A stretch of 64,000 bases of DNA, taken from NCBI GenBank assembly GCA_903813345.2, contig CAIIXF020000001.1:27032001-27096000 (forward strand), in the 5' to 3' direction. Numbering within the stretch: position 1 is the first letter of the stretch; each line of letters starts with the position of its first letter. The DNA is from Owenia fusiformis (taxonomy: Eukaryota). This document shows, piece by piece, positions 20,427 through 59,411 of the stretch. Both the position numbers and the translations under genes were made by a program. A model generated the notes under the pieces. It ran no database searches and was not told the origin of the DNA. It saw nothing but the letters and a program-made list of their open reading frames with translations.

Positions 20427-20625
20427 TATGTATTGACCCATAGACCCCCTAGTGTTGTGTTTGTATAGATTTGTTTTGATCATGTCAGCCTGCCAATGAG
20501 TATCATTTATAATAAAAAGTGTGAAAATAAAAACGTTTTTTTTTGTATTATTAAGATTAGAGAATTTGGGTCAACTTGGAATAAAGTATCATCCACATGG
20601 CAGAATTGCATACCATGCAATTTTA

Positions 20626-21112
20626 ATGATACTAGTGCAAACCATTATAATACTAGCGCAAACCATTATGATATGAGTGCAAACGTTCATGATACTAGTT
20701 CAAACCATTATGATACTAGTGCGAACCTTCATGATACTAGTGCGAACCATTATGATACTAGAGCAAACCATGATACTAGTGCAAACCATTATGATACTAG
20801 TATGCAAACATTCATGATACTAGTACAAACCATTATGATACTAGTGCGAGCCTTCATGTTACTAGTGGAAACCATAATGATACTAGTGCGAATCTTCATG
20901 ATACTAGTGCAAACCATTATGATACTAGTGCGAACCTTCATGATACGAGTGCAAACCATTATGATACTAGTGCGAACCTTCATGATATTAGTGCAAACCA
21001 TGATATAAATGTGAACATTCATGATACTAGTGCAAACCTTCATGATACTAGTGCAAACCTTCATGATACTAGAGCGATCATTCATCATACCATTGCGAAC
21101 CTTCATAATACT
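20626..21112. repeat. 21-bp minisatellite with two alternating variants (42-bp higher order)
   Basis: ATGATACTAGTGCAAACCATT alternates with ATGATACTAGTGCGAACCTTC; about 23 units. Confidence 0.9.
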
Positions 21113-22207
21113 ACAGTGCGGCGAAGTCCATGTGTAAACTTCACGAAATTCTTCCCTCCAGATAAACGCCAATAAATTCCCTCTTAAAGGAACAAAATGC
21201 GCAAATGAAGTCTCACATTTGATCTTCATAGTATTTCCAATAGATTAATAAGCACCTGATCTTTCATTTGACACCAAAAACAGCTCAAACAGATCACATC
21301 AGAGTTGATACTAGATCATGAAAAAATATTTTTTGATCTATCAATTTATATATTTCAAGTTTTTAGCAATGCCATTGAATGATGGCATTGTTTTTCGTAG
21401 GATTAAATGATTAAAGCTGAGCTATGTCCATTTTCCTATGTATTTCAATGGACACAAATTCCTCTATTCGTTCTTTTTCAAAAATAAATTCAAATCTCAG
21501 TTTGAAATTGTATTATAATAATTCTGAGTCGCATAGTGCAATTCAAACAATTAAGTCGGTTAAAGTGATACATGGAACAAAGTTAAATTGTATTTTTGAA
21601 TTTTGTATGGAGTTAGGACAATTTGACACTGAAAGAGGATGATTTAAAGAGTGAAAATATCATTTTTTCAAAAATGGCACTTAGGACATTATTATTTTCA
21701 TTCGACTAGATATCTAAATTGCAATATGTCATCATACACCATTCTTCACTCTGGTATATTGTTCAAATTATCCATCTTTTTATATGTGGGGCATAACCAA
21801 AATATGAATACGTAATGTTGTGACGACAAATATCACATTGAAACGGGGGGTTTGCATTTACTATTTTTCTCATCCAAATATATATAAAGATACACATACC
21901 GGTATGGCTCCACCTCCTGTGAAATTTCTTGATATCTATGCAATCTCAAAAATATATTGACGTAGACTGATATAGCAACATTGATTTTGTATGCATCCGC
22001 TCTAGTTGAGGGTTGTTTGTTCTTTTATAAAAGGATATGATACGAACTATTGCTGTGTGCGGAAGGCTGCTAGGGTCTGCTTTCCTTTGTAAAAAGGAAC
22101 TAGAGTCTAGCCTCTTTAAGCTCTTTCAGTGACTCCCATTGTAGGTTTGTAAGAGTATTGGTGACACAGTTTGTAAATTAGGCCGGATAAATGACTTGTA
22201 TCCCCGG

Positions 22208-26800: not shown

Positions 26801-27656
26801 TCACAGAAAATTGCATCTTGAACATATCCAGCCAGCATACGCGATTTTCGCGTAGATCATTAATACTTTCTAATATTTTCTATTTATTTTTTATATAGCG
26901 ACGAAAAGGTTTGGATTGGCGCCCAAAGGGACAGTGGAGGCAATTGGTATTGGCACAATGATGGATCTCCAATAACTTGGACAAACTGGGATAGTGTTCC
27001 GGATGGTTCTGAGGACTGTGTTTACGTCATGGCCGACAGCATGGACTGGATAAACAAAAACTGTGACGAAGAAGCTCCTGTTGTAGCCTGTATGATAGGT
27101 AAGAGGCACGCCTTTAGAGTTTAGAGGTATTCTTTTAAAGAGGCACTCCTGCGGTCTAATATTGGCAGACGGAGTCGAATACAGTTTACTAGAAGTCGAA
27201 TGGGGTGTACTTTCCCGGTTTGTATAGAACTTCGATTTTATTTTACACAAATAACTTTTACTCTTAATTGTATTTGCAGTTCATGAATCAACAACCGAAC
27301 AAACAACCATACAAACAACCGTGCAAACAACCGAACAAACAACCGTGCAAACAACCGAAATGACGACCATACCACAGCCTTGTGACACACCACAATTAGG
27401 AAAAATGACATATGCTTTGAAGATTGATAAAAAAACAGTGAATGATCTCTCAAACGCTATAGGCGGGGAATTCGTCGCAAGGTCCAAATTGGAGTGTGCG
27501 ACAAAATGTTTTGAGCTTACAAAGTGTATATGTCGAGCTTTTGTATTTAACAAATCTGACAAAAAGTGTACACTTCTAGAATCGAAGATTCCATTGAGCA
27601 ATTTTGTTGTTGACGCCAATGGTTTGTCTTACTATGAATTAGACAATGTCAAATGA
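23891..27656 (+). CDS. Secreted C-type lectin + Thr-rich linker + PAN/Apple domain protein, 270 aa; exons 23891-23981, 26422-26566, 26899-27098, 27280-27656
   Basis: Signal peptide MEKVFVIMLLGSFTSFVMC; CTLD AETKC..GGVLAKVNS, VWIGA, WYW, WTNW, EDCV, WINKNC..C; (QTTx)n linker; PAN SKLECATKC..CRAFVFN..KCTLL. Phases 1,2,1 join to 813 nt. Exon 1 is the least certain. Confidence 0.85.
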
Positions 27657-32959: not shown

Positions 32960-34850
32960 GCCTTGAGTTATTTTCATTGAAATTTCCATTGAAATTATTA
33001 ATTCCAATTCCAAGAACATAATTGTAAGCATCATCTATAAACCGCCAAATGTAAACATTGACAACTTTAATCAAAATCGAAATCACTTCATGACAAGGGT
33101 AACATCTGAAAATAAATATTCAATTATAACTGGGGATTTTGATATTGATCTATTCAAATGTAAATCCCATCATGCATCGAGAGAATTTTTAAACCTTATG
33201 GAACCATTCAATCACCAACCCTTGAAATATAGGCCAACACGAGTTACATCACATTCTGCTACATTAATACATACTATTTTCACTAATCTAAACAATGTTA
33301 TACATAGTGCTGTCATTTTAATGGATATTTCAGATCATTTTCCAGTATTTGCAATGACTAGAATGAATACAAAAAAGACAACTCAAAGAGAAATATCCTT
33401 CAGAAGATACAATGATACAAATGTAACTGACTTAAAACACAAACTTAATATTCTTGACTGGTCTGAAATGTATGCATCCACAAAGGTTAACGACTCATAT
33501 TCTTTATTTTACAATGCTGTATTTGATGTATTTGAATTGTAAAGAAAAGAGTGAAATGTTTTAATAATTCTACCCGACCATGGCTTACCTCTACTAAAAA
33601 TAAAAATAAGTTATATTCTAAGTATATCAAATCTCCAAGTATTACTAATTTGAACATTTATAAAAACTATAAGCGTCAACTATAAGCGTTTCTTTCAGAA
33701 AAAACTTTTCGACCTTCATGGCTATTCTTACTTTTGTAGAGAACGTCAGAAAAGCTTTAGAAAATGACAAGTACCCAATAAGACTGTTTCTTGATCTTTC
33801 TATTTAGCATTTGATACTTTAAATCATGGTATTCTTTTAGAAAAAATGAATTTTTATGGAATAAGGGATACATCCCTTAACTTCTTCCAAAGTTATTTAG
33901 AAAACAAAAAACAAAAAGTTTTTTATAACAATGTTTTCTCTGAAACAGAATCAGTGTCATATGGTATTCCACAAGGCTCTGTCCTCGGTCCTCTTTTGTT
34001 CATTGTTTATGTAAATGATATATACTTAGCAGTGACTACTCTAAAACTCCGTTATTTTTGCAAAAGATACAAATGGCTTAGCACTTGATTCTTGTATTGA
34101 CTCTCTTGTAGAGAATCTTAACCAGGAACTAGTCACTCTTGATGAATGGTTCAGATCAAATAAACTCTCTCTAAATTATTCAAAAACCAAAAATATAGTA
34201 TTCACAAAAAAGAAGAAACAAATTCATAAAAATCTAAATGTGAAAATAAACAATATCCTTATCGAGCGAGTCAAATCAATTTTCCTTGGAATAGCCGTAG
34301 ATGAACATCTTGACTGGAAAAAACACATAAAGCGTCTTGAAACCAAAATCTTTTGTACAATTGGTATTTTGTTTAAATGCAGACATCTCCTAAATATTCC
34401 AAGTATGCTTGCAATTTATAACTCATTAATTTATTCTCATCTCATTATTCTCATCAATTATTGTACTGTAGTTTGGGGTAGCAACTATACAACTGCTCTG
34501 GACAAACTGTCAAAACTTCAAAAATCATTTTTGATATTATTGGCTATGAAAAACAGGAGAGAACATTCATCTCCTTTATTTAAACAATTTAAAGTTTTGC
34601 CAAGCATCTTCGAGTATAACATTGGTCAATTTGTGTATAAATGGTATAACAACCTCACAATTTACCAACTGCTCTTCGGTGACTATTATTATCGCAATGA
34701 CCAAATTCATAATTATTTTACAAGACAAAACAAAGAGCTACATACACAAAAGTTTGAAACAAATATAGGATTGTTTTCAATAAAAACGCAAGGACAAATC
34801 ATTTGGAATAATCTACCTTTGTATCTAAAAAATAGCCCTTCTCTGAGCAT
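32960..34850 (+). mobile_element. Degraded CR1/L2-group LINE ORF2 (APE + RT), internally deleted and frameshifted
   Basis: IYKPP, GDFDID, PTRVT, ISDHFPVF; LFLDLS..AFDTLNH, GIPQGSVLGPLLFIVYVND; NYCTVVWG. Confidence 0.9.
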
Positions 34851-34884
34851 TAGAGGGGGGCCAATAATGCTATATAGCCTCGGC

Positions 34885-35512
34885 TGTTACGCGGTAAACA
34901 CGATACAAAAATATGCCATATTCCGCAACGAATATGGCATATTCACTTGCGGTGTATGACAGATTCACCTGCGGTATATGGTATATATACCAATGAGAAC
35001 GTGATACGGAAGTACGCAATTGTCAATTGCATCGATTGAACGAACAAGTAAAACTTTATAAATTATATGATTACTGAATCAACAGTGCAATTTATCGAAT
35101 ATATCAACGTATGCAGAAGTATCACTCACCAATCTCACGTAGGTAATAAACTTACCCAATCAATCCAGGATTCATATATAAGTACTCGACGCACCAACAA
35201 TATTGGTAATCCAGCGTAGTTTTACATTTAGAGTCGATTCTGGCAACCAATCAAACCAAGTCTTTCTGTATCACGTTTTCGCCTGCGGAATATGTCATAT
35301 TCACCTGCTGTATATGGCATATTCCGCAAGTGAGTATAACATATTCTGCAGGTGAGTATCGGGTATTCACTGAAATCAATGTATCGTATATTCACTGCGA
35401 AATATCGCATACTCACTTGCGGAATATGCCATATACCGCAGGTGAGTATGGCATATTCACCCGTATCACAAATACCGCGCAACCATGAATATATGGCATA
35501 TTCCGCGTAACA
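34885..35512. mobile_element. 628-bp TGT...ACA element with 5-bp TSD (Ginger2/TDD-like MITE or solo LTR), copy 1
   Basis: TGTTACGCGG...CCGCGTAACA; TSD TCGGC; subterminal ATATGCCATATTCCGCA repeats in both orientations. Confidence 0.85.
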
Positions 35513-39829: not shown

Positions 39830-41542
39830 ATGTCTCACATCGACGATATTACCCTTCCCAACGCACCACTTACACGGAGCTACCTGTATGGGGCGCCTAA
39901 AACACCCCTTGTGGACATGACATTAGCCGAGGCCCTCAATAAAACAACAGAGAAATATCCTGAGAAAATTGCTATAACGTATCTTGATCCTACCCAAGAA
40001 ACATCACACTCTATGACATTTCTAGAATGGCAGAAAAGTTCCAAGAATCTTGCGGCATCGTTGAAAAAGATGGGGATCACCTCAAGGCATCATGTGGCTA
40101 TATTAGCTCCTAACTGTAAAGAGTTTTTGATCGCTACATGGGGTCTATTCTACATAGGCGCTACCGCTGTCTTCCTTAGCCACGAATTAAAGAGCGGAGA
40201 AGATATTCTAGGGAAACTCAAGGCAACCAAGTGTAAAGGCTTGATCATTTTTAATGATGATGGGCCCATGGTCTCCAGTATAATAGAAACAATCTTATTC
40301 GATCCAAAATGCCGAGTCCCGACACGTTTCATCGTTACGATCGGTCAGAGTACCCACGATGGTATCCACAGTCTACAGACATTGATAAATAGCGCCAGGG
40401 AGGCGGATTTGAGCAATTTAGAGAGAGCAACAGGGGGAAATCTTAGTGGAAACAACGACGCTATCGTCTGCTTTACTGCCGGAACAACAGGCAACCCTAA
40501 AGCTGTCCCACTCAATCACGTTAGCTTGATTAATGCTTTCACTTTCATTTTGAGGAGATTCGGAATCGATGACCAACAGGTGTTTTTCAACGATCGTCCT
40601 TTGACATGGCTCGGTGGCTTCTTGTCTCCCCTCTGCGCGGTTCTGTTTGGCGCTAGAGTAGTTTCTGTGGATACATCTAAGACTGTCAATCAGCACGACA
40701 CGGAGTTTATCCTGGGTACGATGAATCGTGAAGATGTCACCCATGCAATGACATTGCCGTATTTGTTATATGATATTGTTCACTTTGGAGAAAAATCAGA
40801 ATACAAACTTCGTCATCTAAAAGCTATATTTGTGAGTGGACAAATGGTCCCGAGTAATCTTGTAGCTGATATGATAGCAGCTTACCCAAATATAACTGCC
40901 TTTAATGCCTATGGTAACACAGAAACATCTGGCCCTATAGTAACGATCTTCGCCGGTGAAAATCTAATGCAAGATGGTTCTGTCACCGTTGGTCTTCCTA
41001 TACCACATTGTGAGGTCAAGATCATTGACAGTAATGATAAAATCACCCCTATCAATGAATCGGGTGAGGTCTGTTTAAGAGGTCCAAACTGGGTCAGTAG
41101 ACCGTATCGAGATTCTGAAGGATGGTTTCGCACTGGAGATATAGGTAAAATGTCTACCAATGGAAGACTATTTATTCTTGGTAGATGCAAAGACATGATC
41201 AAAAGAGGCACACGCTCAATACTCCCTTCGTACTTGGAGACCGTCATAGCGACGCATCCTAGCGTAGAAAGCGTATGTGTGGTCGGTGTCCCAGACGAGA
41301 GGCTATACGAGGAGATATGTGCCTGTATCGTTGTGAAAGCTGGTGCCACTCTCACTGCTGAGGATATGACGAGCTGGTGTGACGAAGTGTTCGCTGCTGA
41401 AGGCACAGCAGATGGCATGAGTATGGCACCGAAATATTTTATATTTGTGGACAGTCTCCCTGTTGCAACAATAGGGAAGATTGATAGAAAGAACTTATGG
41501 GACCACGCTGTCACAACCCTAGGCATACAAGTGCGTCAATAG
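39830..41542 (+). CDS. AMP-binding acyl-CoA synthetase, ACSF2-like, 570 aa, single coding exon; acceptor at 39791, probable non-coding exon ending at 37970
   Basis: FTAGTTGNPKA, AYGNTE, GEVCLRGP, GWFRTGDIG, GRCKDMIKRG, VVGVPDERLYEEICAC, IGKIDR; N-terminal SYLYG..TPL as in ACSF2; in-frame TAG upstream at 39812. Confidence 0.93.
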   Translation: MSHIDDITLPNAPLTRSYLYGAPKTPLVDMTLAEALNKTTEKYPEKIAITYLDPTQETSHSMTFLEWQKSSKNLAASLKKMGITSRHHVAILAPNCKEFLIATWGLFYIGATAVFLSHELKSGEDILGKLKATKCKGLIIFNDDGPMVSSIIETILFDPKCRVPTRFIVTIGQSTHDGIHSLQTLINSAREADLSNLERATGGNLSGNNDAIVCFTAGTTGNPKAVPLNHVSLINAFTFILRRFGIDDQQVFFNDRPLTWLGGFLSPLCAVLFGARVVSVDTSKTVNQHDTEFILGTMNREDVTHAMTLPYLLYDIVHFGEKSEYKLRHLKAIFVSGQMVPSNLVADMIAAYPNITAFNAYGNTETSGPIVTIFAGENLMQDGSVTVGLPIPHCEVKIIDSNDKITPINESGEVCLRGPNWVSRPYRDSEGWFRTGDIGKMSTNGRLFILGRCKDMIKRGTRSILPSYLETVIATHPSVESVCVVGVPDERLYEEICACIVVKAGATLTAEDMTSWCDEVFAAEGTADGMSMAPKYFIFVDSLPVATIGKIDRKNLWDHAVTTLGIQVRQ

Positions 41543-44468: not shown

Positions 44469-45514
44469 CAAGGGGCGATCAATATATTCTGATAAAAATG
44501 CTCTCATTTTGCTATTTTTCACATATCCATCTCATTTCAGAAAATGTAGATTATGTAATTACACGTACAATACTCAAATATTATAGCTACATCTTAAATT
44601 AATTAAGAGATATGGTTACCATGGTAACCTGTATTAATGGTAGACAGGTCAATTAAATTATAACGTATAAAATATCATAATAACTTGTTATTTTAATCAA
44701 AAGCATGCGGAAATCATACATTTGTTTGCCATTGTTTCTCGTTGTTTGTTGCTAAACAAATGTTTATTTGTGATCACTATAACATCACAACAACTCACAA
44801 TAGCAATGTATGACAGGATGGGCAAATTAGTGGAAGTACATGTCATATAGACACACCAAATATCAAAATGACAGATCAGATGAGGTTAGTGCGGCTGTTG
44901 CAGAGTGTGACATTAACAGATACATCAGGAATACCATTAGATTTTATGTACTATCAAGAATAAGTAAGAGGACACTGCCAGAGATCATACATGGACTCGT
45001 ATAATGTATGGACAAAGTGTTGTATCTGCTCTAAGGATCTCTAGGTAGTATTGTAAATTTGAGGAAGGCTATTCACTGTTGAATATCATTCCCAATCTGG
45101 TTGGACGAAGAGCTTGCGGACAGAGAATAACACTACGATAATTTGAGATGCAATTTATGAAAAAAGAACTTTTCCACAGTGCAAATAGCAAACAAGGGCA
45201 ACATGGGGTATGAAGCAGTTCAACAAATAGTTGGCAATGACCTGGATATGCGTTTGATCTGCTTGAAATAGGTATCGAGGAATGATTAAATTAACAAACT
45301 TATCTATTTTATACGTTATAATTTAACTGACCTGCCTACCCTAAATACAGGTTACCATGGCAACCTTATCTCAACAATAATTTAAGATATAGCTATAATA
45401 TTTTAGCATTGTATGTGTAATTACATAATCTTCAGGTTCTGAAAAAATGAGAGGGATATGTGAAAAAACCACAAAATGAGAGCATTTTTATAAGAATATA
45501 TGGATCGCCCCTTG
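44469..45514. mobile_element. Tc1/mariner-type MITE with ~200-bp TIRs
   Basis: TA|CAAGGGGCGATC...GATCGCCCCTTG|TA; arms include AAAAATGCTCTCATTTTG and GGTTACCATGG. Confidence 0.85.
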
Positions 45515-45767
45515 TATATATGTTTTTGCGCTCAACTAGTACGAAAATCATACATCCTTATTTGAAATATTGCTCGGAAGCACGGACGGATGAACTAGAG
45601 GACGAAGGGGTTCACTATAATCGAACTTCGTTCAAAGGGATAATAAGGAAGTAAATTGAATTTATTTCTACATATCAGCCAATCACAGTCTATCAAATCT
45701 CTTGTTCTCCTGTTATCTTTTTTATAATTTATCGTACGTTCAATTTTATTTCAGCATACCCACAATC

Positions 45768-48700
45768 ATGGCAGAACAGGACCACAAGAAAAACATCCAT
45801 GGCACAAAGTATAGCCTACACAGGTCTCTTAGTATCATGGAAGGTGATACCAAAGAAATACCACATATGACTATTCACCATGCCTTCGAGGATATCGTCA
45901 AGTCATCAAGGGCGTCTGGTCCAATATCTGAAAAAGTAGCTATAAGGTAATATGGAACTTCACTCTGCTTCGTCTCATTCACGGTGACCAAGAGTTAACA
46001 GTGCAAACTCAAACTCTTTAGACGTGTTTTGTAAGAACATGGGATGCGATATTCGTTAGAATGGAGCAAAAAGGTAAGAATAACGTTTAAAGAGTTTGAA
46101 AAAACACGACCAGTGTGAAAGAAATGATGGTCCCTCAGGGATTATGGTCCCCTTTTTTAACGGCCCTTACTGGCACTGATTGCGTATATGATAGTGAGAG
46201 AAAGAGTTGTATTTAGGTCACCATATAAATAAATGGAGAGTAGGACCATAATTTGATAGGACCTCCTACCCTTTTACACCGGGCCAATTTGCACTGTTAA
46301 CTCTTGGTCACCGTGTCATTGTGTGATCCACAACCAGTACTATCCCTTGGAATAGACTGACTGTGTCTCTCGCAAGCTTTTATTAAGATAAAGAGAAACT
46401 TTGATAAAGAGAGACTTTGATAAATCAGAATGACTTAATTGGCTCTGGGGATAAGAAGGAGCCGTCATCAATATCTAAACAAAATTACATTAAGATACTC
46501 TTTTTTATCTTATCATTTAATAAAGTAAATATTATGTACTAGATTTTCTCATTTTGACTCACAAAATCAGGTTTTATAACTTATTACATACGTATTTCTT
46601 CTGCAATACAAAAACCGAAAAGTACAATTTAGTGCTATGGCCAAGGCCATTTGTGTCCAAAACACCTAGATTCAATTTGACTTTAGATTCTTGTAGGGGA
46701 TTCTTGTTTGTGAACCCTTGCAAAGCAGGCTCAAAAGTGCTGAGTCAGCAAATTTTATCATTTTCGAGTTGGAGTTTGACCATATGCTTGAAACTGTTTA
46801 ATATCTCATTTGAGGTTGTTGCAATTATAATGAAACATTGTTAATATATCAGTAAGGCATGTATGAAGAATTCCTTAAAATGTTTGGGTCTTATCCAACA
46901 GAATTTGGTAGAGATAATCAGTCATTTAAAAAAACAGTAAGGGCCTATGGTGTATTAAACCTGATTAAAAACTTCACTGATGATGTTAGCAAATATTCCT
47001 TGCATAAGTTTCAATAAAAAGTACAAGCATCTATTTTTTCTGATTTTTCTCTTTACCTTCCCCTAAAAATTCAAGAAAGGGGGCGTGGCACATTACGCTT
47101 CAGTCGTTGAACTTGTTGGTAGGGTCAAATAGAAAATGCGTATCGTTATAGCAAAATTTGTTATTCTAAATAAATCTTAACACTACATGTGACATCATAA
47201 AATGCTAAATATATTCATTATCTAACATCTTATATTTTTTATTACAACTTGTCATTGCCATACCCCATAGAACCGTTTAGGGTATGTGTGGTCAGCAATA
47301 GGAAATACATGTATGTGTACTAATAACATTCAAGTTCAAAATTGTATTTCAGATGCCATTCTATCCTAATGTTGTTTATGTAGTCATGGTATGTTAAGAA
47401 TGAATTGTTAAATTACACTGCCCATCATAAGTTTTGTAACTGGAATTCCCCCTTTGAATCACTTATCAAAGCTTGTCATGCTGTTTGGCAATTTTAAACA
47501 AGACATCAAGCTTTTGAAATAAAGCAATAAGGAACAAAATCGAGGTTCCAACATTGACAGACGTTGATATGTCATCATATGAAAACTTGCAGTTGCCAAC
47601 CTTATGGAGGGGGTGTATATGCTCTGTATAATATGTGTCATAAATTGTAGAAACCTAAAGCCAAAGGAAATAATAATGCTTTACATTCTCTCCAAGTGAT
47701 CAATTCCGTGGCACTGGGTTTGTTGATATTACTTATATGATGTGATGTGACATTAAGTGAGTTTGGTCCAAAGCCAACATATTCCAATGGCGCAGAATCC
47801 CACTCGCCCCTTCAAGTCCCACCATGCCATATCGAGTCCCACAATGTTCCATGGGACCATATTAACTTTGTCCCATGGAGTCTCATTGAGTCCCTCCATG
47901 TCCCATTGAATCCCACGGAAATTATGTAATTTAGTTTAGAAGGTTTTGTCTCAGTCATTTTGATCCCAAGTTAGCTGACACATCCCATGATCAAAAGTCC
48001 CACGATGCCCAAATGGAAAGAGAATGAACAGGTTCATTCTCAATGGGGCTTCGTGGGACTTTGTCAAATGATACCTCATCGAATCTCATGGGACTCAATG
48101 GGGCTTCATGGGGCAAAGTCCCAAGGAATCCCAAGGAAATCCATCGGGCAAATCTCAATGAAGTCCAAGAATTTCCATGAGGTCCCACCCAATGTTAAAT
48201 CAATGGAGGTCCCACCATGTCGTATTGGTGTATGTCAGACTTTAGCTAAGTAACTTCCTTTGTTTATATTCATCAAAACGTCAAAAAGAAAAAATTGTCA
48301 AAACTTTGTAAGTGCGTGATTATTTGGACTGATTTCACTTGTTTGCTACTTGTCTGCTTCAATCCTGGGGGGTTCACTGTGTACAAAATTTGGCGGGGTC
48401 CTAGGTTGAACCCTTAGATATCAATATATTCCCATACCAAAATGTCAAATTTGGATGTGTTCCCATACCAACTGAAATAGTGCCCAAAAGCCATACCAAT
48501 ACCATACCAAATGTCAGAATATAGGACCAATGCCATGACTGGTCCAAAGTAGAATATTTTCTGGGAAAACCCTATTTATTTAAACTGAAGAAGGTCCCAA
48601 GAAGAAGGCGATCTTTGAGGAAAACGAACCAAAACAACCTCATATTAGGATATGTGTAACTACTAGACCAATTCCATACCATATTTTCCATGACCATTCT

Positions 48701-51700
48701 CATACCAGAAAGTTGAAAATCTGACAATATCCATCCCTCAAAAGTCATAATGAGGGGGCATCCTCATACCACATCCTAAGATTTGGGTCCATTGACATAC
48801 CAAATGTCAAAAAGAATGTGTGCCAAGCCAAAAATTAAGATCTATCTTGAATTATACAAATCTTGGTTCAAAAATAGGGCTAGAAGCTTAAAATAAAGAG
48901 CATTTTAAAAATCTTTTCTTCTATCTCATGGTTATAGGGGGGGGTGCGATCCCATCCCAGGCTACGCCTATGGACAAGGTCTATTATTTTGACATAAACA
49001 AAACATACGTCATCTGTTCTACATACAACAAATAAACAATTTATGACATATATACAATACGAAGTGTGCAAACTGCAATCAGGCTCGGAGTAACTCTGGC
49101 TCTTAATCATTTGTTGTTACAATTTGTTATTATATAGACGTGTCGCAAAAAGCTCGCGCACGCATTGTTACACATTTTGTGGCGTAATCCAGAGGATCCT
49201 CGCTTTTAACATGATAGAATGTGACGTTTTTGAGAAAAATGTACACACATGAAAATCCTTTCGTCCTCCACATTTACCTCTATATCTCAAAACATTTTAG
49301 ACGAATAACTCTGATATCATATGTATATTGTTAATGGGCTAGGAGCATCATAAAACACGAATCAATTGATATTTTAGGTGAAATAAATATACGTGTTGCT
49401 GTGCTTGAAAATAGGCGAATGGCGTAAATAAGCCCTATTTTAATGAATTTTGAAAACCTTTCGTCCTCCACTTTTCCACATACAACAGAAAACACATACT
49501 TTTGTGAACAAAATCAACTATTTATTAATAAACTAGAGTTTAGGAGCAAAATAATCATGTATGATTTATTAAAAATTGATCTCGTATTTTTTGTTTAATG
49601 TACACCTGAAAAGTTGAAGGTACCAAAAAATGAGCAAAAAAGGTCGCTGTCAACAGATTCTATTTTTCAGACTCTATGACGTCACAATATGGGACGCTTA
49701 CTAAAATTCATCCTTTGAAATAAAACTTCCATCTACCTTTATCAAGACGAAAAATAAGTATAATAGTCATATATTGTTTGAGTTATGAGCGTTTAAAGAC
49801 GACACATAATTCAAAATGTAACGTGTCAACATGGGATATTTGCCAGATGTTTTGGTAAAAAACTCTTTTTTAAAAACGAACGCGCAAAAAATGTGAACGG
49901 AGTGTAGTTGATCTAAAATCTTCATCGAAACAGCTTTAAATGATATATAACTTTAATTAGAATATTATCTTATAATCCGGGGAATCAAAGTTACATTCAC
50001 GCGATACCCTTAAAAAACAAATGCGCCACCTTTTTGCGACACGTCATAGCTAATTATTTGCAGCAACAACAGGAGTCTCGTTCCAGTTTACATGGACCCT
50101 ATACTATAAACCATGTACACCCCCTCCATAAGTTTGGCAACTGGAAGTTATTATATGATAGCATATGAAAGTCTGCCAATTTTTAAACCTTGATTATGTT
50201 CTTTGTTACCATATTTCAGATACTTCGATTTCATATGCCAAAAATAGAAAGACTTTAATAAGTGATTCATGTTACGCGATAAACATGATACAAATATATG
50301 CCATATTCCGCAATGAATATGGCATATTCACTTGCGGTGTATGACAGATTCACCTGCGGTATATGGCATACACACTAACCAATGAGAATGTGATACAGAA
50401 GTAGGCAGTTGTCAATTGCACCTATTGAACGAACAAGTAAAACTTTATAAATAATTATTATATAATGATTACAGAATCAACAGTACAGTGTATCGAATAT
50501 ATAAACTTATGCAGAAGTATCACTTACCAGTCTCACGTAATAAACTTACTCAATCAATCCAGGATTCATATATTACTACTTGACGCACTAACTTTATTGA
50601 TTTCCAGCGTAGTTTAACATTTAGAGTCGATTCTCACAACCAATCAAACCAAGGCTTTCTGTATCACGTTTTCACCTGTGGTATATGTCATATTCACCTG
50701 CGGTATATGGCATATTCCGAAAGTGAGTATGACATATTCCGCAGGTGAGTATCGGGTATTCACTGAAATCGATGTATTGCATATTTACTGCGGAATATGG
50801 CTTACTCACCTGTGGAATATGCCACATACCACAGATCAGTATGGAATATTCACCCGTATCACAAATACCACGCAACCAGGAATGTATGCCATATTCCGTG
50901 TAACAATTCAAAGGGGTTTGAGTTGCCAAACTTATGATGGGAAGTGTTATCATTCATAAACATAAACCATAACTACATGAACAACATTAGGAAAGAATGA
51001 CACCTGAAATACAATTTTGAAAATGTTATTACACATACATGTATTTCCTATTGCTGACCACACATACCCTAAACAGTTTTATGGGGTATGGCAATGATAA
51101 GCTGTAAAAAATATAAAATGGTAGATAATGAAAATGTTAAGCATATTATGATATAACATATAGTGTTTAGATTTACTTAGAATAACAAATTCTGCTATAA
51201 TGATACACATTTTCTATTTGACCCTAGCAACAAGTTCCACAACTGAAGTGTAAGGTGCCACGCCCCCTTTCTTGAATTTTTAGGGGAAGGTAAAGAGAAA
51301 AATCAGAAAAATAGATGGATGCACTTTTTATTGAAACTTTTGCAAGAAATATTTGCTAACATCATCAGTGAAGTTTTTAATCAGGATTTTATACACCATA
51401 GGCCCTTACTGTTTTTTAAATGACTGATTAACTATCGACTGATTAAGAAATTTTGAAGAGAAATTATGTACTTTTAGGGACAAACTATCCCATATCTCTA
51501 CCAAATCTTGTTGGATAAGACCCAAACTTTCAGGAATTCTTCATACATGCCTTATTGATATATTAACAATGTTTCATTATAATAGCAACATCCTCAAATG
51601 AGATATTAAATAGTTTCAAGCATATGGTCAAACTCCGACTCGAAAATGATAAAATTTGCTGACTCAGCACTTTTGAGCCTGCTTTGCAAGGGTTCACAAA

Positions 51701-53454
51701 CTTTTTTTTACATGCCTTGGGGTCCCCTACAAGAATCTAAAGTCAAATTGAATCTAGGTGTTTTGGACACAAATGGCCTTGGCCGTAGTACTAATTCGCC
51801 ATGCGTATATTATAAGGCAAACGATTCCCAACAACGAACAAAAACCGTTGAGTCGTTGTTAGAATCAATGGGGGAAAAGGTCATTGACTAATCCATATAT
51901 GCTTGATTCTTTAGATTTGGTGACAGAGTGACAACGTTTGGACAATTGAATGGCAAGGCAAATTCATTGGCTCGTGCGCTTAAATTCCAACTCGTCAACA
52001 ACAAGAAGGTTGATTTTTCCGGCGACAAACAGCACATTGTGGCTTTGTTTATGTCTGAATCCGATACCGCAGTAATGAGTGCATTGTCCGTGTTAAAACT
52101 TGGTGCTGCCTACACCGTAATGGACAAAATCCTTCCTCCAGATCGTATTAAGTATATCATCGATCAAGCCGGTGTTGCCGCCATTGTAGCAACTGAAGAC
52201 AACATTGAATACCTAAAAGCGGCTAATCTCGGGGATGACACATTGGTGCTTTCACTGTCCGATTTGCTCAATTATGCACAGAGTGCTAACCTTTCCGAAG
52301 ACAACATTCCAGATATCGATGGCCTTCCAGGGTTTGACGAGAAGCTTGGAATGTGTATTGTGATCTACACTAGTGGTTCAACAGGCTCCCCAAAGGGGGT
52401 GCGCATCAGCCACGCCTCATTGCTCAACAACTTTAATTACATTTGGGATGTTGTTAACTTAAAAGAAGGCGACGTAACATCAGCAATGACTTCGCTCATG
52501 TTTATTCCGCACGCAACGGATATATTCTGCCCTCTTTTACAAGGTCTCCCAGTGGTTATCGTTCCTAAGTCAATTAAGCAAGACCCCGAAGAATTGATAG
52601 AGCTCTTGGACAGAGAAAACGTTTCTGTCATTCCTTTTATTGCACCTTCCTTATTGGACGTTATTCTGCAGTTCGTTCAGATGTTTGATGATCCGAAAAT
52701 ACAGACATTAAGATTTGCTAATGTAGGCGGAGAGGCTGTCCCCACTCAGATTGTTCACGATTTTTACGATTACTTCAACGAGGGAGTTGTTCTTGTTGAT
52801 AGCTGGGGCTTGACAGAGACTAGTAATGATGCTACTTGGATGGAGTTTAGAGGAAAGAAAGATATCGCCGAAGGAGTGTTTGATGAAGGCGTCAGCATTG
52901 GAGTCCCTCTGCATAACACCATTGCCTATATTGTCAATGAAAAGGGAGAAGCAGTGTCACATGGTGAAGTGGGGGAGCTCTGTATCAGCGGCGTTTGCGT
53001 CTCTCCCGGGTATATGGACAAAGAGAATGCCTTTTCATTTGTGCCAAACACGCTAAGAAAACAGAGTGGTCACGAAACCCTTTTCAAAACTGGCGACTTT
53101 GCAAAGATCAAGAACGGGCGACTGGTGTACTGTGGTCGGAGGGATCAGATGGTAAAAATACGAGGTTACCGAGTAAACATAAGCGAGATAGAAACTGCCA
53201 TTAACAAGCTTGATTTTATTGAAAAAGTTGCTGTTTTACCCGTCAAGAGGTCAGAAACGGACGTATACCTCGTTGGATTCTACTCATGTCGGCCCGGGAA
53301 ATCAGCAGAGGCGAACGATATCAGAAAAGCGTGCGAGGCTTCCCTTACACCATACATGATTCCAGAGAGATTTGTCAAACTTGACGAAATGCCGCTCAAA
53401 GAGGCTAGTGCCAAAACAGACAGGAATGCTCTCAAACAGCTTTTAGGAAAGTAA
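45768..53454 (+). CDS. Stand-alone Ebony-like NRPS adenylation-domain protein, 572 aa; coding exons 45768-45946 and 51915-53454
   Basis: Phase-2 join KVAIR-FGDRVTTFGQLNGKANSLAR; LKLGAAYTVMD, YTSGSTGSPKGV, GGE, WGLTE, IGVPLHNT, GELCISG, LFKTGD, GRRDQMVKIRGYRV, LTPYMIP, AKTDR; Ebony-like LSIMEG and FYDYFNEGV. Confidence 0.92.
45980..46315. mobile_element. Transib-like MITE containing a nested Ginger-like MITE
   Basis: 28-bp TIR CACGGTGACCAAGAGTTAACAGTGCAAA; TSD TCATT at 45975-45979 and 46316-46320. Confidence 0.85.
49137..50045. mobile_element. Nested MITE, unclassified
   Basis: TIR GACGTGTCGCAAAAAG/CTTTTTGCGACACGTC, flanked by ATA on both sides. Confidence 0.75.
50270..50905. mobile_element. 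636-bp TGT...ACA element with 5-bp TSD, copy 2
   Basis: Colinear with 34885-35512; TSD ATTCA; the empty site is visible in the opposite TIR arm near 47455. Confidence 0.9.
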
Positions 53455-54054
53455 TTATATACTTCTTAAATGAGATTTGTCAATATGATGCTAAAGAAGC
53501 TTGTGCCAAAACAATCGACAGCTTGCATAATACTATGACTAGAACTAGGACTAAAACTTATTTTTAACTTTAGTCAATATTGCGACATTACAGTGTCATT
53601 GTAACATTACAAAATTGTAAATGCTACAAATTAAAAGTCGAGATAATGTATTCAAAATAGAAAAATCAATTTAAGCAATTAAATATGACCTTAAACAGTG
53701 GTAATGAGAGTGAATTATTTGTTGTCTTTGTTGTTCAAATGACTGGTAATGGAAGAATATTACCACACCAGAACACCCTGAAAATGGTGTAAGATACCGT
53801 TGTCACAAATGGCGGACGTAATTGTCGCTCCAACTCTTTAATCATCACCCTGCTATAGCATGACGGTTACGCCACCTCTGAAAAACGAGGTTGGACGGCT
53901 ACGTTCACTGTTTTATCGAATAAAATGGCCGCTATGGAACAGAAAACAAAGGTTGGTGCATTATTTTCTACTACTGTGTATCAATGAAAGGATGAACGAT
54001 TTATGTAAGCATCGCATTCAGTGATGCATTTAGTAATGTATATTTTGAACGTAG

Positions 54055-56892
54055 TATTGTATTGTATTGTATATTTATTGCCTCATTTATATGAGAGAAT
54101 ACATTTTAGTATACATATGGTTTACATATAAAATATAAAATACAAGGATAAGATTAAATTATGTGATAAAAAAGTTGTTGTTTTGGAAAACATAAAAATA
54201 AAGTGATAGAGAAATTATGTGTCAAGCAGAGCCAACAGGTTGGCTCTGTGATTGTACATTTTGTGTACACATGATGAAACAATTATTAACGTCTCACATG
54301 AAACATCTGAGAGACCTAAAACTTTCTTCATAATAACACCCATACTGTCACCACGACAGCCAAGGGCTTCAAATATGTTATGCCTATATGGTTCATACAT
54401 AGGGCATCTTAATATAAAATGTTCAATTGTTTCAGTTTCACAGAGGATACACAATATACATCGTTTTGAACCATTGAAGTTGTTCGTATTTAATACATGG
54501 GCGTTACATATCAATTGCATCATAGTTTTACACTGGCTTTGACATTTAGGATATTTCTGACAAATCAACCACCATATGCAAGGTTTTAAGTCTGTGACAT
54601 AGTCACGTAGGTATAAAAGTTTGCCATAACATGAGCATTGCAAGAAAAATTGCTTGACCTCGACGGATCTTACAGCATTGACAATTTGCAGTCTCCATGA
54701 CCTCTTCGACGGAAGATATCCAGAGTCCAGCGCATTTTACATTTTAACCAGATTTTCAATTCCTAGCATTTTGGTCTTAAGGAAAATGCGCCGGAGAGGA
54801 GAGAAAATATCGGCATGGTTGTCATAAGTGACATGAAACATCTTTACTAACCGTGTTATAGTTATATCCCTGTAAATATTATTAAACCTAAGTAAACTCC
54901 AGAGATACATCATCTGCAACACTGTAATATAGCCGTCTATTGACAACCATCCCAACGGCATCGTTGCACTAGGATTGGCTGAGGTTTTTGGGAAAAATTG
55001 GATACGTTTGCCAATCTCCCTATGAGTCAATTCAAGCTTTTCAACATCTGAGGGCTTGGTAATTTATAACTGGTGCCCCAAACAGCATGGTTGGAATAGA
55101 AAAGGCCCAGTACAGTTTTGATGCTGTTAAGGGTGACAAACCACCTGTTTTGTGCCCCAGTCCCAAAAGTGAGCAGAATTTTCGCTTACCACTAGTGCAG
55201 CGATCATTAACATATTGTGAGATATCATTTTTACTAGATATTGGAATACCAACATGAACAGTGAAATTGACCTTTGGAATTCTCGTGTCACCTATCTTGA
55301 GGACGACATGACCTTTAACACTTGAATCAGTGACCATATCATTAAATGTCAGAAAGTTACATTTCGCTGGATGGATTTCATATCGCCATCTTCTACTATG
55401 TTCAAAGGCAGTGTTTAACATAAGTTGCATATCCTTTTGATTTGTGGCAATAATGGTCATGTCGTCCGCATAAGAAGGACATACACAATTTACATCATCA
55501 ATGTGGCCACCTATATTCATTTCACATAGATCCTGAATAAGGTCAGCCATGTACAACTGATAAAATAGCATAGATAGGACACCCCCTTGGTGGACGCCCT
55601 GCATGACATTAAAAGGTTTAGAAAGTGTATTTGAACTTCCTACACGAACGGCACATTCATATTTATGGTAATTATCATAAAGCATACGCCACAGTTTGCC
55701 TGACCATCAATCCATCTAACCAAACGGTGTCAAATGCTTTTCTAATATCTAATGTGGCTAATATTACATTTCTATGCTTTTCGACATTGTGGGCAATGGT
55801 TTCCTGAACTAAAAGGGAAGTATGAACAGCAGAGCAATGACTCTGAGAAGCACCTTGTAAGTTAGGCATAATATTTTTTGCAAGGGATCCAATTCTTTTT
55901 AACACAATATGATCGTACACTTTACGCAACATGTTCATCAGAGTGATGCCTCTGGAATTGTCTTTATTACAAGGATCTTTATTTCCTGCCTTTAGTATAG
56001 GTATCAGTATACCAAACCTAAAATTCATGGGAGTGTATTCGTTTAACATGGTTGCATTAAAAAGGGTACATATGATCGAAATTACAGTGTCATTGCTATA
56101 TTTTAAATGTTCGGCACATATCGTATCCGATCCACATGCACGATTATTATGCAACCGTGATATGGCATTACTCACTTCACTATCCTGAAATGGTTCATCA
56201 AAGAAAGTATTATCTTCAAAATATGATGTTTGCTTAATATGCATAATTTCATTTTCAATTTCACACTTGGCATGGCTGTGAAAATGAGGCTTATCAGAAG
56301 GGGTTGCCAAACGAGCAAAGTGAGTGCGCCATTCATCCCTTATTCCAGCCTCGTCACTTACGATGACGTCATTATCAGATTTAATTGGAGACAGACGCCT
56401 AGAAGCCTTATTTCGGCTCTTATTGAGAAGATGCCAATAGTAACGCTGATCAAGTGATTCTGACCTGTATAGACGATTAAGCTCATTTTGTTCATACATA
56501 AACTCACTACATCTTAAACATTTTCTAAAAGCACATTTGGCAGATTTATATTGGGCCCTAATTACATTATCCGCATTTCGAGGTCGACCAGCCGACACCC
56601 ACTCACGCCATCTTTTCTTCTTTAACTTTACTAATCTGGTTAATTCATCATTCCAGAATGGCTTTACATGCTTTGAGAACTTCTTAATGGGGATATGTGC
56701 ATTAGAGCATTCAATCAGGCCATTTACCAGTTTCAAGATATAACTATCAATTTGGCAGTTTTCCAAATTATTTACACCAATTAACCGTAAATCATTCAGA
56801 ATGCCCTTACATTGCAAATCAAGAGATGATGTGTACGTTGATGCCCGGGGATAACACGAAATAAGCGAAAAACTGTTGAGTATTAAATTCAA
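54055..56892 (-). mobile_element. 5'-truncated LINE (RTE-X-like; clade tentative) with RT and C-terminal CCHC
   Basis: SRGITL, LDIRKAFDTVW, GVHQGGVLS, YADD, C..C..ETIEHFILRCP; at least two frameshifts and one stop; 3' AATAAA plus (ACAAT)n tail; no APE domain retained. Confidence 0.9.
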
Positions 56893-57619
56893 AACAACAC
56901 AAAATTTAGTAATTTGTTTACTTTTGTGTAATCGGCATGGTCTACATTGCCTAACGACATCGGGGTATATAGATGTAACCTACACACGATCATAAAAAGC
57001 CAATTGAGCATTGGAAACCACCTAATATGTTCTACTCAAGCCATAATAATGTATATTGAATTTGCGGTTACGCAAAAAATCGATGGACCGTAACGCGAAC
57101 CTCGTTCAAATATGTATCCCCGATTCGTTGTTATTAATTTATTTTTTAAATTGTGAGACCGAATAGGCTGGTTCCTCCTTGCGTGCTATAGGAGGCGTCG
57201 GGAGTCATACAGTATGGTAACGATCACCCACCAAGGGCAGTAGTGGAAAGACAAGAATCGGTACCAGCATGGTTGTGTTGAAACTGAAGAGACTTGCGAT
57301 CGAGAATCTCGTGCCATTCGCGTTTATCTAGAAAAGACTCGCTGCTTGATCGCCGACTCACAGATAATTCATTAGTTTAGGAAGAATTCGATTCATTTTA
57401 TTTTATTCGGGAACACTTAAAATTTGCCTTTTACAGGTTGAACGGGTCTTCAACTTTCTACAAACCTCTTTAATCTTGACACATAGCGATTGTTTCGAAA
57501 CACAGATAACGATGTATGTTTTAAACTCCTTCAACATCAGTAACAACTCTTCAAAATCCAAAAGGTCTTACTAGATGTGAATACATAGGTCTAGTTTCAA
57601 ACTAGGGTTAATCGCTATC

Positions 57620-59411
57620 ATGAAAGTCATTTTGTTTCTTTCCTGCCTTCTTCTGTCTTCGACTGGAACGATTTCACAAGATTTAGGTAAGTTCTCATCC
57701 TGACGTAATATTTTTACTAAATATGATCCTCGTAATATGACTATAAATAAGAAACTAGTTATAGGATAATGGTTTCATTGACAGAAGGGGTTGATTATGT
57801 TTTACAGATTGTGAATTGGAAGGCCATACTTGTAAAGATTCGACAGTAGAGACGTGCGAAGATGGCGAGTTCGACACCAGTTTTGAATGTGATGGATATT
57901 GGGCGATACAATGCTGTGTGTCAAACCGGCCCCCTACACAACCCCCGGTGCCATCCACAACTGAGCCCACCACTCTTCCTGTAGTCTCACAGTCAGCAGG
58001 GTCTACGCTATCACCTACGAACACCACACAACCATTATATGGAGGTATGTCATCCCGGGTGTGTCATATATTGATGGCGTACAATATTACTATTTTTTCT
58101 AATTTTTTTAAGTCCATTTATTTCGCATGCCAGTTCGATCTGTTTAAAATAGTATTACTCAGATTTAACTCTCAATTACTGATGATCATGTTGATACCCT
58201 ATTATTGTTTGAAAATAGATTGTGGTCGACGACAGGTAGAAAGCAGTCAGATAACCAATGGGAGAGAAGCAACACCACATAGCTGGCCATGGCAAGCTTC
58301 TCTACGTACGGCCAATGGTGCTACACACAACTGTGGAGCTGTACTTATTTCAGATCGATGGGTCCTAACCGCCGCACATTGCATCAACTCGTAGGTGGTC
58401 ATTTTCACTTGGATACCTTGATTATTCCCTCCACCACACGATATTTGTTACTTTGACATTTTGCCTGTCGCTAATTCTCTCTCGAAAGTCCATGATGAAA
58501 CCAATAGAGACAAAATATCTAGAACTGAAAGAATAATTAGGATAACTCTTGAAAGATAAGTGTTAGGATAACTCTGGTCCTAAACTGAAAAGCGTTCATG
58601 TTCATAACGGTCAAAAATGACTGCGTATACACAGCTGACCAGCCATTCCAATTTTAGAAAGCTTTTGCTCAAAGACCATGTGCTATTTAATATCATCATC
58701 TAACAAAGAACAACCTCAATGTGCTCACTTGTGTAAGCTTGCTTAAAATGACACAATTTTCAATGGGAAAAAGTTCCATGGAAACGCATATTGAATAGAA
58801 TGCCCCTTATTTTTTAGCATATATGACAATGTAGCTACATACCGTGTGGTTCTTGGTACCCACTATCAATTTGACTACAATGCAAACGAGTATTCTGCTC
58901 ATCTTGAGCAAATGATTCCAGTAAGTACAGTGTATATTGTAATTTTGTCGTCCCAAGTTGTAGTAAGTAGCCCCATACAACCTTTATACATTATCTAGTA
59001 GTGGCATTTCGGAAGCTAGCTCAATTTAAGAACCAATTTTGCACGACTTGATAGCTGAAGTTATTCTATTAAAAAGGCGTTCACATGCAAAATGGCACCA
59101 CCTGCCATTTTTTACAGACACCGAACACCAGCCGTAACACCAATTATCGTCGAACACAGTCCACAAAAAGTTGGAAACTATAACAAAATATCACCACTTG
59201 TGGTGGTGACATAAGTTCTTGATAAGTTATATTTTACAGCACCATCTCTATGATCAAGAGGGCCCAGGGTTTCCTTATGATATAGCGCTGTTAAAACTTG
59301 ATCTACCGGTTCCGTTCAACCGATATATACAGCCAGTATGTCTTCCCCTAGAAGGCGAGGAGTTCACAACTCAAGATGAATGCTTCCTAACTGGTTGGGG
59401 GGATACAAGAG
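57620..59411 (+). CDS. Secreted trypsin-family (S1A) serine protease, 3' part not in window; exons 57620-57686, 57808-58044, 58219-58390, 58818-58920, 59240-59411
   Basis: Signal peptide, six-Cys module, P/T linker, [43 protein letters not shown]; phases consistent; GDSGGP absent from the window. Confidence 0.92.

Follow-up and report, generated by a model that had tools for sequence, protein, structure and literature searches.

An expressed, adenylation-only offshoot of the Ebony family with an altered substrate pocket in the annelid Owenia fusiformis

Enzymes of the nonribosomal peptide synthetase (NRPS) type are very few in animals. Ebony and Sm-NRPS are single-module beta-alanyl-biogenic-amine synthases that consist of an adenylation (A) domain, a carrier domain, and an atypical C-terminal amine-selecting (condensation) domain, and the beta-alanyl-amines of the Ebony family serve in pigmentation and neurotransmitter recycling and, in schistosomes, as a pheromone. 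A gene of the annelid Owenia fusiformis, located on the plus strand of a 64,000-nucleotide (nt) stretch of contig CAIIXF020000001.1 (positions 27,032,001 to 27,096,000; the whole stretch is referred to below as the window), encodes a 572-amino-acid (aa) relative of these synthetases that stops where the A domain stops. The locus thus raises the question of whether an Ebony-type A domain can persist on its own and, if so, on what substrate it would act. The explanation favored here, which is considered fairly probable, is that the gene encodes a free-standing adenylation enzyme derived from a duplicated annelid Ebony/Sm-NRPS-type gene, with domains lost, the pocket changed, a predicted new acid as the substrate, and the acceptor supplied in trans.

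By its domains, its motifs, and its predicted fold, the protein is an NRPS-type adenylation-domain enzyme of the ANL superfamily. Pfam identifies AMP-binding (PF00501; 203 bits, cutoff 29.9) and AMP-binding_C (PF13193; 30.5 bits, cutoff 24.5), both encoded in exon 2, and no other domain in the 572 aa; the peptide encoded by exon 1 is without any match. The best NCBIfam model is the amino acid adenylation domain TIGR01733, which at 277.3 bits stays below its curated cutoff of 317.4. Such a shortfall is typical of these animal proteins because three of four Ebony-like relatives fall short too (P0003, 270.4; P0271, 284.9; P0009, 311.5; compared with 326.6 for P0005). The best of the coenzyme A (CoA)-ligase models, NF004837, scores 202.5 bits against a cutoff of 476 and ranks under the NRPS models, and among proteins of known structure, the closest in sequence are A domains of NRPSs, e.g., LgrA and GrsA. 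An AlphaFold2 model computed from a 70-row alignment has a predicted local distance difference test score (pLDDT) of 90.9 and a predicted template modeling score (pTM) of 0.90. When this model was submitted to Foldseek, GrsA-PheA (1amu_A) came first by E value (6.7e-45), and the best superpositions were with thioester-state structures, holo-EntF (5t3d) at a template modeling (TM) score of 0.81, although the conformation of the model is the predictor's choice and carries no weight for function. The residues T212, S213, G214, S215, and G217 in the phosphate-binding loop A3, E361 in A5, D454 in A7, R468, D470, and K474 in A8, and K560 in A10 all lie in invariant columns of the 70-row alignment, and all are kept.

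The gene has two coding exons (coding sequence [CDS] 45768-45946 plus 51915-53454). Translation begins with the ATG at 45768; exon 1 extends to 45946, with GTAATA behind it, TTTAG precedes the start of exon 2 at 51915, and the TAA occupies 53452-53454. The joined CDS of 1719 nt has 0 internal stops, ends in DRNALKQLLGK, and translates to a product with 100% identity to P0002 (an uncharacterized "unnamed protein product" of Owenia fusiformis), the public annotation of which likewise ends at 572 aa. An initial annotation of this DNA had placed an intact 572-aa open reading frame (ORF) at 45768-53454 with its stop right after the A10 lysine; the sequence reading, the joined CDS, and the identity to P0002 bear this out. 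Upstream of exon 1, the picture is less complete. The spliced contigs of two sequencing runs, X14 and X6, begin matching at 45753, next to an acceptor-like TTTCAG that directly precedes the exon, and carry 74 and 111 extra 5' letters that are absent from 45500-45752. Because both contigs have such unplaced letters and break next to this acceptor-like sequence (45753-54), at least one further upstream exon exists. This exon is probably noncoding, as suggested by the alignment of the query with the N-termini of Ebony-like proteins from residue 17-23 onward.

Transcription was examined over 45500-54200 in four sequencing runs: contigs of X1, X6, and X14, together with about 6% of the reads of an unassembled RNA run. 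The runs are presumed to be RNA, with no RNA label on record. However, one contig each in X6 and X14 (two of the four runs) carries the joint between 45946 and 51915 (45944>51913, cut +2, GT..AG, skipping 5968 nt), which shows that both runs contain spliced RNA. Contigs of three of the four runs span exon 2 wholly or mostly at even depth (X1, 51913-53423; X6, 51949-53489; X14, 52078-53566); the X1 contig stops at 53423, short of the stop codon, and another X1 contig spans 53493-53760. The repeat-free intron bins 46373-48118 are empty in X6 (depth 0) and do not exceed a depth of 1.02 in X14. An assembly or annotation artifact was considered and rejected because RNA contigs of several runs reproduce the exon structure. 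Among the 22 coding differences listed between the contigs and the window, 17 are synonymous and 5 nonsynonymous, which over 379 synonymous and 1337 nonsynonymous sites gives a pN/pS of 0.083, and none of the listed contig differences is an indel within the CDS. The gene is spliced, transcribed, and under purifying selection; the lack of expression and the ratio near 1 that the initial annotation had named as grounds for doubt are not what the contigs display.

The 572-aa protein has an A-only architecture. The carrier (PP-binding) domain, present in all six relatives scanned with Pfam, is not found in it. Three relatives, each with a carrier domain and a complete or partial Ebony-type tail, were compared with the 64-kb window by tblastn; they matched the A-domain exon of the target and a second, unrelated ANL gene upstream, and outside the A domain they yielded only noise (best tail match, E = 1.4). 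The regions that follow A10 in 21 Ebony-like proteins were also combined into a tail profile, which reached a best E value of 5 against all 2872 six-frame pieces of the window, covering both strands. Transcripts point the same way: contigs X6 (to 53489) and X14 (to 53566) run collinear with the genome across the stop codon, unspliced. A donor-like AA/GTAATT is located at the stop, from which, it had been feared, transcripts might splice to downstream exons; no joint or loose end at 53450-53455 appears among those listed in these contigs, which drop rare transcript forms (224 loose ends lie beyond those listed). Thus, Pfam, tblastn, the tail profile, and the read-through contigs uphold the initial observation that no carrier or Ebony C-terminal domain occurs before the next gene. 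Past the stop codon, within the 3' untranslated region (UTR), the A10-coding stretch (53367-53418) is present again as a degenerate tandem duplicate. Its first block is identical to the original (53367-53378 and 53472-53483, 12/12), and the second nearly so (53398-53418 and 53493-53513, 19/21). The two blocks recur 105 and 95 nt downstream, respectively, and the 10-nt length difference between the two blocks breaks the frame of the copy. This duplicate marks local remodeling of the 3' end of the gene, where the carrier-coding part should follow.

The classical specificity positions of the substrate pocket were mapped through the 70-row alignment, with numbering relative to the motifs, position 278 being the least certain. 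The query pocket comprises I257, P258, (H259), T261, F301, N329, G331, S356, N364, D365, and K560. Judged from this alignment, the pocket is altered, and the family-invariant Val-Asp-Ser of motif A4 is lost. The initial annotation had described a rebuilt pocket from the strings TSLMFIPHA, ANVGGE, and DSWGLTE, all of which are present, and had compared them with the Ebony strings TALTFVDS, WVCSGE, and NFYGSTE; these occur literally in the termite Ebony-like protein P0005. The replacement of Val-Asp-Ser by Ile-Pro-His stands, with one correction to its register: the canonical Asp235 aligns with Ile257, whereas the Asp of the Ebony family lies one position later and aligns with Pro258. The pocket further differs from those of the Ebony-like proteins at positions 278, 299, 301, 322, and 330, and at eight of the nine variable specificity positions, the query has a residue that few or none of the 20 Ebony-like rows share. 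Of 967 A-domain segments taken from 272 proteins, just 8, the query among them, are without Asp at both 235 and 236. Taken at face value, these changes suggest that the enzyme probably activates an acid other than the Ebony-family substrate. From the lost Asp, the initial annotation had gone further and proposed that a nonamino carboxylic acid could be activated, the enzyme then working with CoA, with a carrier protein in trans, or by forming an amide directly. Naming the substrate from the specificity code was considered and rejected, as no code match points to a particular substrate.

Several lines of comparison connect the protein to the Ebony family. In a length-limited protein search, the next match after the protein itself is Owenia P0003 (880 aa, 33% identity, 303 bits), followed by insect Ebony and unnamed relatives, with bacterial A domains ranking lower than the Ebony-like proteins. 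The best single-domain scores of Ebony-like proteins extend from 320 to 210 bits (top, 320.5, for Owenia P0003), and the best non-Ebony-like domain among those compared reaches 216.4. A search with the Ebony tail of P0003 retrieved four proteins, a set too small to survey taxa, among them a second full-length Owenia paralogue, P0271. Two trees were constructed, both without AASDH and other animal A domains; AASDH, about 1100 aa long, is outside the range of the length-limited search. The quick tree had 64 rows, namely, the query, 26 Ebony-like proteins (12 near-duplicates were left out), 36 others (the 20 top scorers and, of the remainder, every 14th), and a very distant outgroup. For a careful tree of 39 rows, the far outgroup was dropped and 12 of the 36 others were kept as a bacterial-type root. 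In the careful tree, the query belongs to a 5-row clade with P0003, P0271, P0272, and P0273 (support, 95/85) within an 8-row clade (99/98), and the Ebony-like proteins plus the query split from the 12 bacterial-type rows at 100/100. With a length of 1.91, the query branch is four times as long as the median (0.44) and about twice as long as that of the paralogue P0003. These comparisons support the protein as belonging to the annelid branch of the Ebony family and as evolving fast, and the grouping outside the Ebony clade about which the initial annotation had cautioned is not observed among the rows of the careful tree, from which AASDH is absent. In one published analysis, annelid A domains cluster with Ebony and AASDH is placed apart from the Ebony clade (PMC10531068). 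Horizontal transfer from bacteria was rejected because the spliceosomal intron is used in RNA and the protein nests among animal proteins. The features of the gene are collected in Table 1.

Table 1. Features of the Owenia fusiformis adenylation-enzyme gene (coordinates in the window)
Feature	Position	Strand	Details
Start-codon exon	45755-45946	+	CDS 45768-45946; residues 1-59 and two bases of codon 60
Intron	45947-51914	+	5968 nt; GT..AG ends; repeated elements at 46082-46372 and about 48990-50740, both of very high depth in the RNA-derived contigs
Last coding exon	51915-53454	+	Residues 60-572; whole adenylation domain (N-terminal core and small C-terminal subdomain); TAA
Motif A3, phosphate-binding loop	52369-52395	+	Residues 212-220, TSGSTGSPK; intact
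Motif A4, Ile257-Pro258-His259	52504-52512	+	Val-Asp-Ser (positions 235-237) in 20/20 Ebony-like rows
Pocket positions 299-301, Asn329-Val330-Gly331	52720-52728	+	Ebony-like rows: Ile/Val, Cys/Ser, Ser/Asn
Motif A5 and pocket floor	52801-52830	+	Ser356 (322), Trp357, Leu359, Thr360-Glu361, Asn364 (330), Asp365 (331)
Catalytic A10 Lys560 codon	53413-53415	+	Invariant column; 12 residues before the stop
Transcribed 3' UTR	53455-53760	+	Contiguous with the CDS to at least 53566; separate contig 53493-53760
Degenerate, frame-broken tandem duplicate of the A10-coding stretch	53472-53513	+	Inside the 3' UTR

Under the favored explanation, an annelid Ebony/Sm-NRPS-type synthetase gene, with adenylation, carrier, and amine-selecting domains, would have been duplicated, and the duplicate would then have shed its carrier and C-terminal domains and evolved fast, substrate pocket included. 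The enzyme would still form an acyl-adenylate from ATP and a carboxylic acid. Its substrate would no longer be beta-alanine held in the usual way of the family because the amine-holding Asp is now Pro; the residues lining the pocket would instead be His, Thr, Asn, Ser, Asn, and Asp. An acceptor supplied in trans would receive the activated acyl group, most likely a phosphopantetheine thiol, because the A8 hinge and the VKIRG lysine of the thioester half-reaction are kept. That thiol could belong to CoA or to a separate carrier, for which the carrier domain of a full-length paralogue is one possibility; transfer of the acyl group straight to an amine would be less likely. A bolder version, which must be regarded as improbable, envisages a two-protein animal NRPS, in which a new non-beta-alanine acid would be loaded in trans onto an Owenia Ebony-type carrier and the amine-selecting domain of that protein would join it to a biogenic amine. 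If true, such a split NRPS would make a new class of acyl-amine molecules for signaling or for cuticle/tube chemistry.

Several observations weigh against the favored explanation. At nine columns with at least 90% conservation in the other rows, the query has a different residue (P128V, W235Y, S259H, V302I, N355D, Y357W, Q472M, P538T, and G559A), and these replacements, together with the long branch, would also fit weakened or altered catalysis. Asp365 (position 331), common to 19 of the 20 Ebony-like rows, is kept, which makes an amine-bearing substrate possible. No gene for a carrier was found in the 64-kb window with the tail profile, which includes Ebony-type carrier domains. The raw-read RNA run is nearly empty on the exons, with a depth of 0-0.55 in the about 6% of the run that was read, and the pN/pS rests on the listed differences, with 148 more over the whole stretch beyond them. 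As to descent, the claim of the initial annotation that the protein is an Ebony paralogue agrees with the single-domain scores and the nesting beside the full-length Owenia paralogues, but the free quick tree with its very distant outgroup places the query at the base of the Ebony-like proteins rather than inside; on the same rows, a tree constrained to group the query with the 26 Ebony-like proteins is 8.09 log-likelihood units better than the free tree, and the clade is not rejected (P = 0.683 in the approximately unbiased test). Finally, no orthologue in another species was found in the length-limited protein search or in a search for shorter proteins (15 matches, at most 36% identity). A HMMER search of 1.84 billion representatives, in which the 150 matches listed besides the protein itself are all multimodule synthetases of 4327-7864 aa, says nothing on orthologues because summed multimodule scores hide single-domain relatives.

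These points can be assembled into other explanations. The substrate could be unchanged, that is, beta-alanine or a similar small amino acid with its amine held by Asp365 or another residue, in which case the enzyme would load the carriers of its paralogues in trans and provide extra capacity or regulation. Such a role would be in keeping with the shared Asp at position 331, with the preservation of all the catalytic motifs, and with the presence in Owenia of at least two full-length paralogues with carrier domains; nevertheless, it is unlikely, being hard to reconcile with the replacement of a Val-Asp-Ser found in 20 of 20 rows and with the changes at the five other pocket positions. Slightly less plausible still is a catalytically weakened or nonenzymatic remnant, a truncated duplicate kept for binding or regulation or heading to decay. 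Such a remnant could account for the branch length, for the nine altered near-invariant columns (including residues in A2, A5, and A8 and beside the A10 lysine), for the confinement of the gene to one lineage in the databases searched, for the almost nil depth of the raw RNA run, and for the degenerate tandem duplication at the 3' end. It is at odds, however, with a pN/pS of about 0.08 over the 22 listed differences, none of the listed differences being an indel in the CDS, and with the retention, in invariant columns, of every residue known to act in adenylation, as well as with the confident fold prediction and the spliced mRNA in contigs from several runs.

It is also conceivable, if very improbable, that the protein does not stand alone and that a transcript form missing from the contigs includes further coding exons, for a carrier or other domains, located upstream or beyond the window. 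The donor-like AA/GTAATT does overlap the stop, the 74-111 unplaced 5' letters imply an upstream exon, the 13 nt from the acceptor to the ATG contain no in-frame stop, and rare variants are dropped from contigs. Nonetheless, the X6 and X14 contigs read through the stop into the 3' UTR with no joint listed there, neither a carrier nor a tail signal was found across the 64 kb, and the gene is followed by an unrelated retroelement and then a protease gene; moreover, the N-terminus aligns with those of Ebony-like proteins, and the public annotation ends at the same residue. A free-standing enzyme with a changed pocket remains the favored explanation of the locus.

The window as a whole is low-GC eukaryotic DNA with retroelements. 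The second ANL enzyme is encoded by an uninterrupted 570-aa ORF at 39830-41542 (+), about 4 kb upstream of 45768 and on the same strand, in tandem with the target gene (AMP-binding, 190 bits; AMP-binding_C, 50 bits); it is 27% identical to the target, and its closest solved structures are acyl-CoA synthetases of the luciferase/4-coumarate-CoA-ligase type. The intron of the target gene contains an element of about 80 nt (46203-46282) with a mean word depth of about 66,900 in the X1 bin and many flanking loose ends, which is a repeat highly represented in transcripts; no Rfam family matches 45500-54200, this element included, at the gathering threshold. A repeat block farther along the intron (48990-50740) has deep coverage of both strands in each of the four runs and shows several back-joints and skips; it is probably a family of transposable elements that is active or whose transcripts are abundant. 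The gene is directly followed by a non-long-terminal-repeat (non-LTR) retroelement made up of three adjacent long minus-strand ORFs (54215-56979), one of them with a reverse-transcriptase match (RVT_1, 35 bits), and another element with long ORFs is located at 32967-34959 (+). The next plus-strand gene after the target is represented by an exon at 57795-58394 (+) in which a Cys-rich and Thr/Pro-rich stretch leads into the start of a trypsin-like serine protease domain (Pfam Trypsin, 56 bits). Farther upstream are an exon-like ORF with a Thr/Gln-rich repeat followed by a PAN/Apple domain (27255-27656 [+]; PAN_1, 33.6 bits) and tandem repeats at 20469-21244 with long ORFs on both strands and a motif of about 8 residues (HYDTSAN-like on the plus strand), probably a minisatellite rather than a gene.

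This locus illustrates one way in which NRPS-type genes diversify in animals, namely, domain loss combined with a change of pocket, and it directs attention to small-molecule chemistry yet to be explored in an annelid used in the laboratory. The protein is compact and soluble looking and is therefore suited to a direct substrate screen. No publication on the 572-aa protein was found by accession or in searches on Ebony with stand-alone adenylation in metazoa, the supplementary tables of PMC10531068 not being covered.

Comparison with known systems places these findings in context. The bacterial free-standing enzymes of the DltA, CytC1, PltF, and VinM/VinN type are, like the Owenia protein, A-only and about 500-570 aa long, with the same fold (here predicted); the VinM-VinL complex, PltF, and DltA (3e7w; TM score, 0.79) are among the structural matches of the model. 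In bacteria, such enzymes share an operon with their carriers, whereas no partner carrier gene was found beside the Owenia gene within the 64-kb window. The NCBIfam DltA models give the query only 188-197 bits, far under their cutoffs of 476 and 560, and the query is not related to these bacterial enzymes by descent because it nests among animal Ebony-like proteins. A domains for acids without an alpha-amino group (aryl, 2-oxo, and 2-hydroxy acids) resemble the query in the absence of the amine-binding Asp, a state shared by only 7 of the 966 other segments. The residues that replace it in these seven are different, e.g., Val-Gly-Gly in three of them compared with Ile-Pro-His in the query; Val-Gly-Gly-like codes mark domains for oxo or hydroxy acids. 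Vertebrate AASDH (ACSF4-U26) is likewise an animal protein with an NRPS-type adenylation domain and, in PMC10531068, where Ebony and Sm-NRPS are both named, is described as beta-alanine activating. Ebony and Sm-NRPS themselves have the nearest A domains by score and by tree and have in common with the Owenia protein the N-terminal region and the Asp at position 331; they differ from it in possessing carrier and C-terminal domains, in Val-Asp-Ser where it has Ile-Pro-His, and at most pocket positions. Because free-standing A domains are common in bacteria, the view of adenylation enzymes is unchanged; what the evidence supports as new here is an expressed, constrained offshoot of the Ebony family that lacks the carrier and joining domains and in which the pocket is altered.

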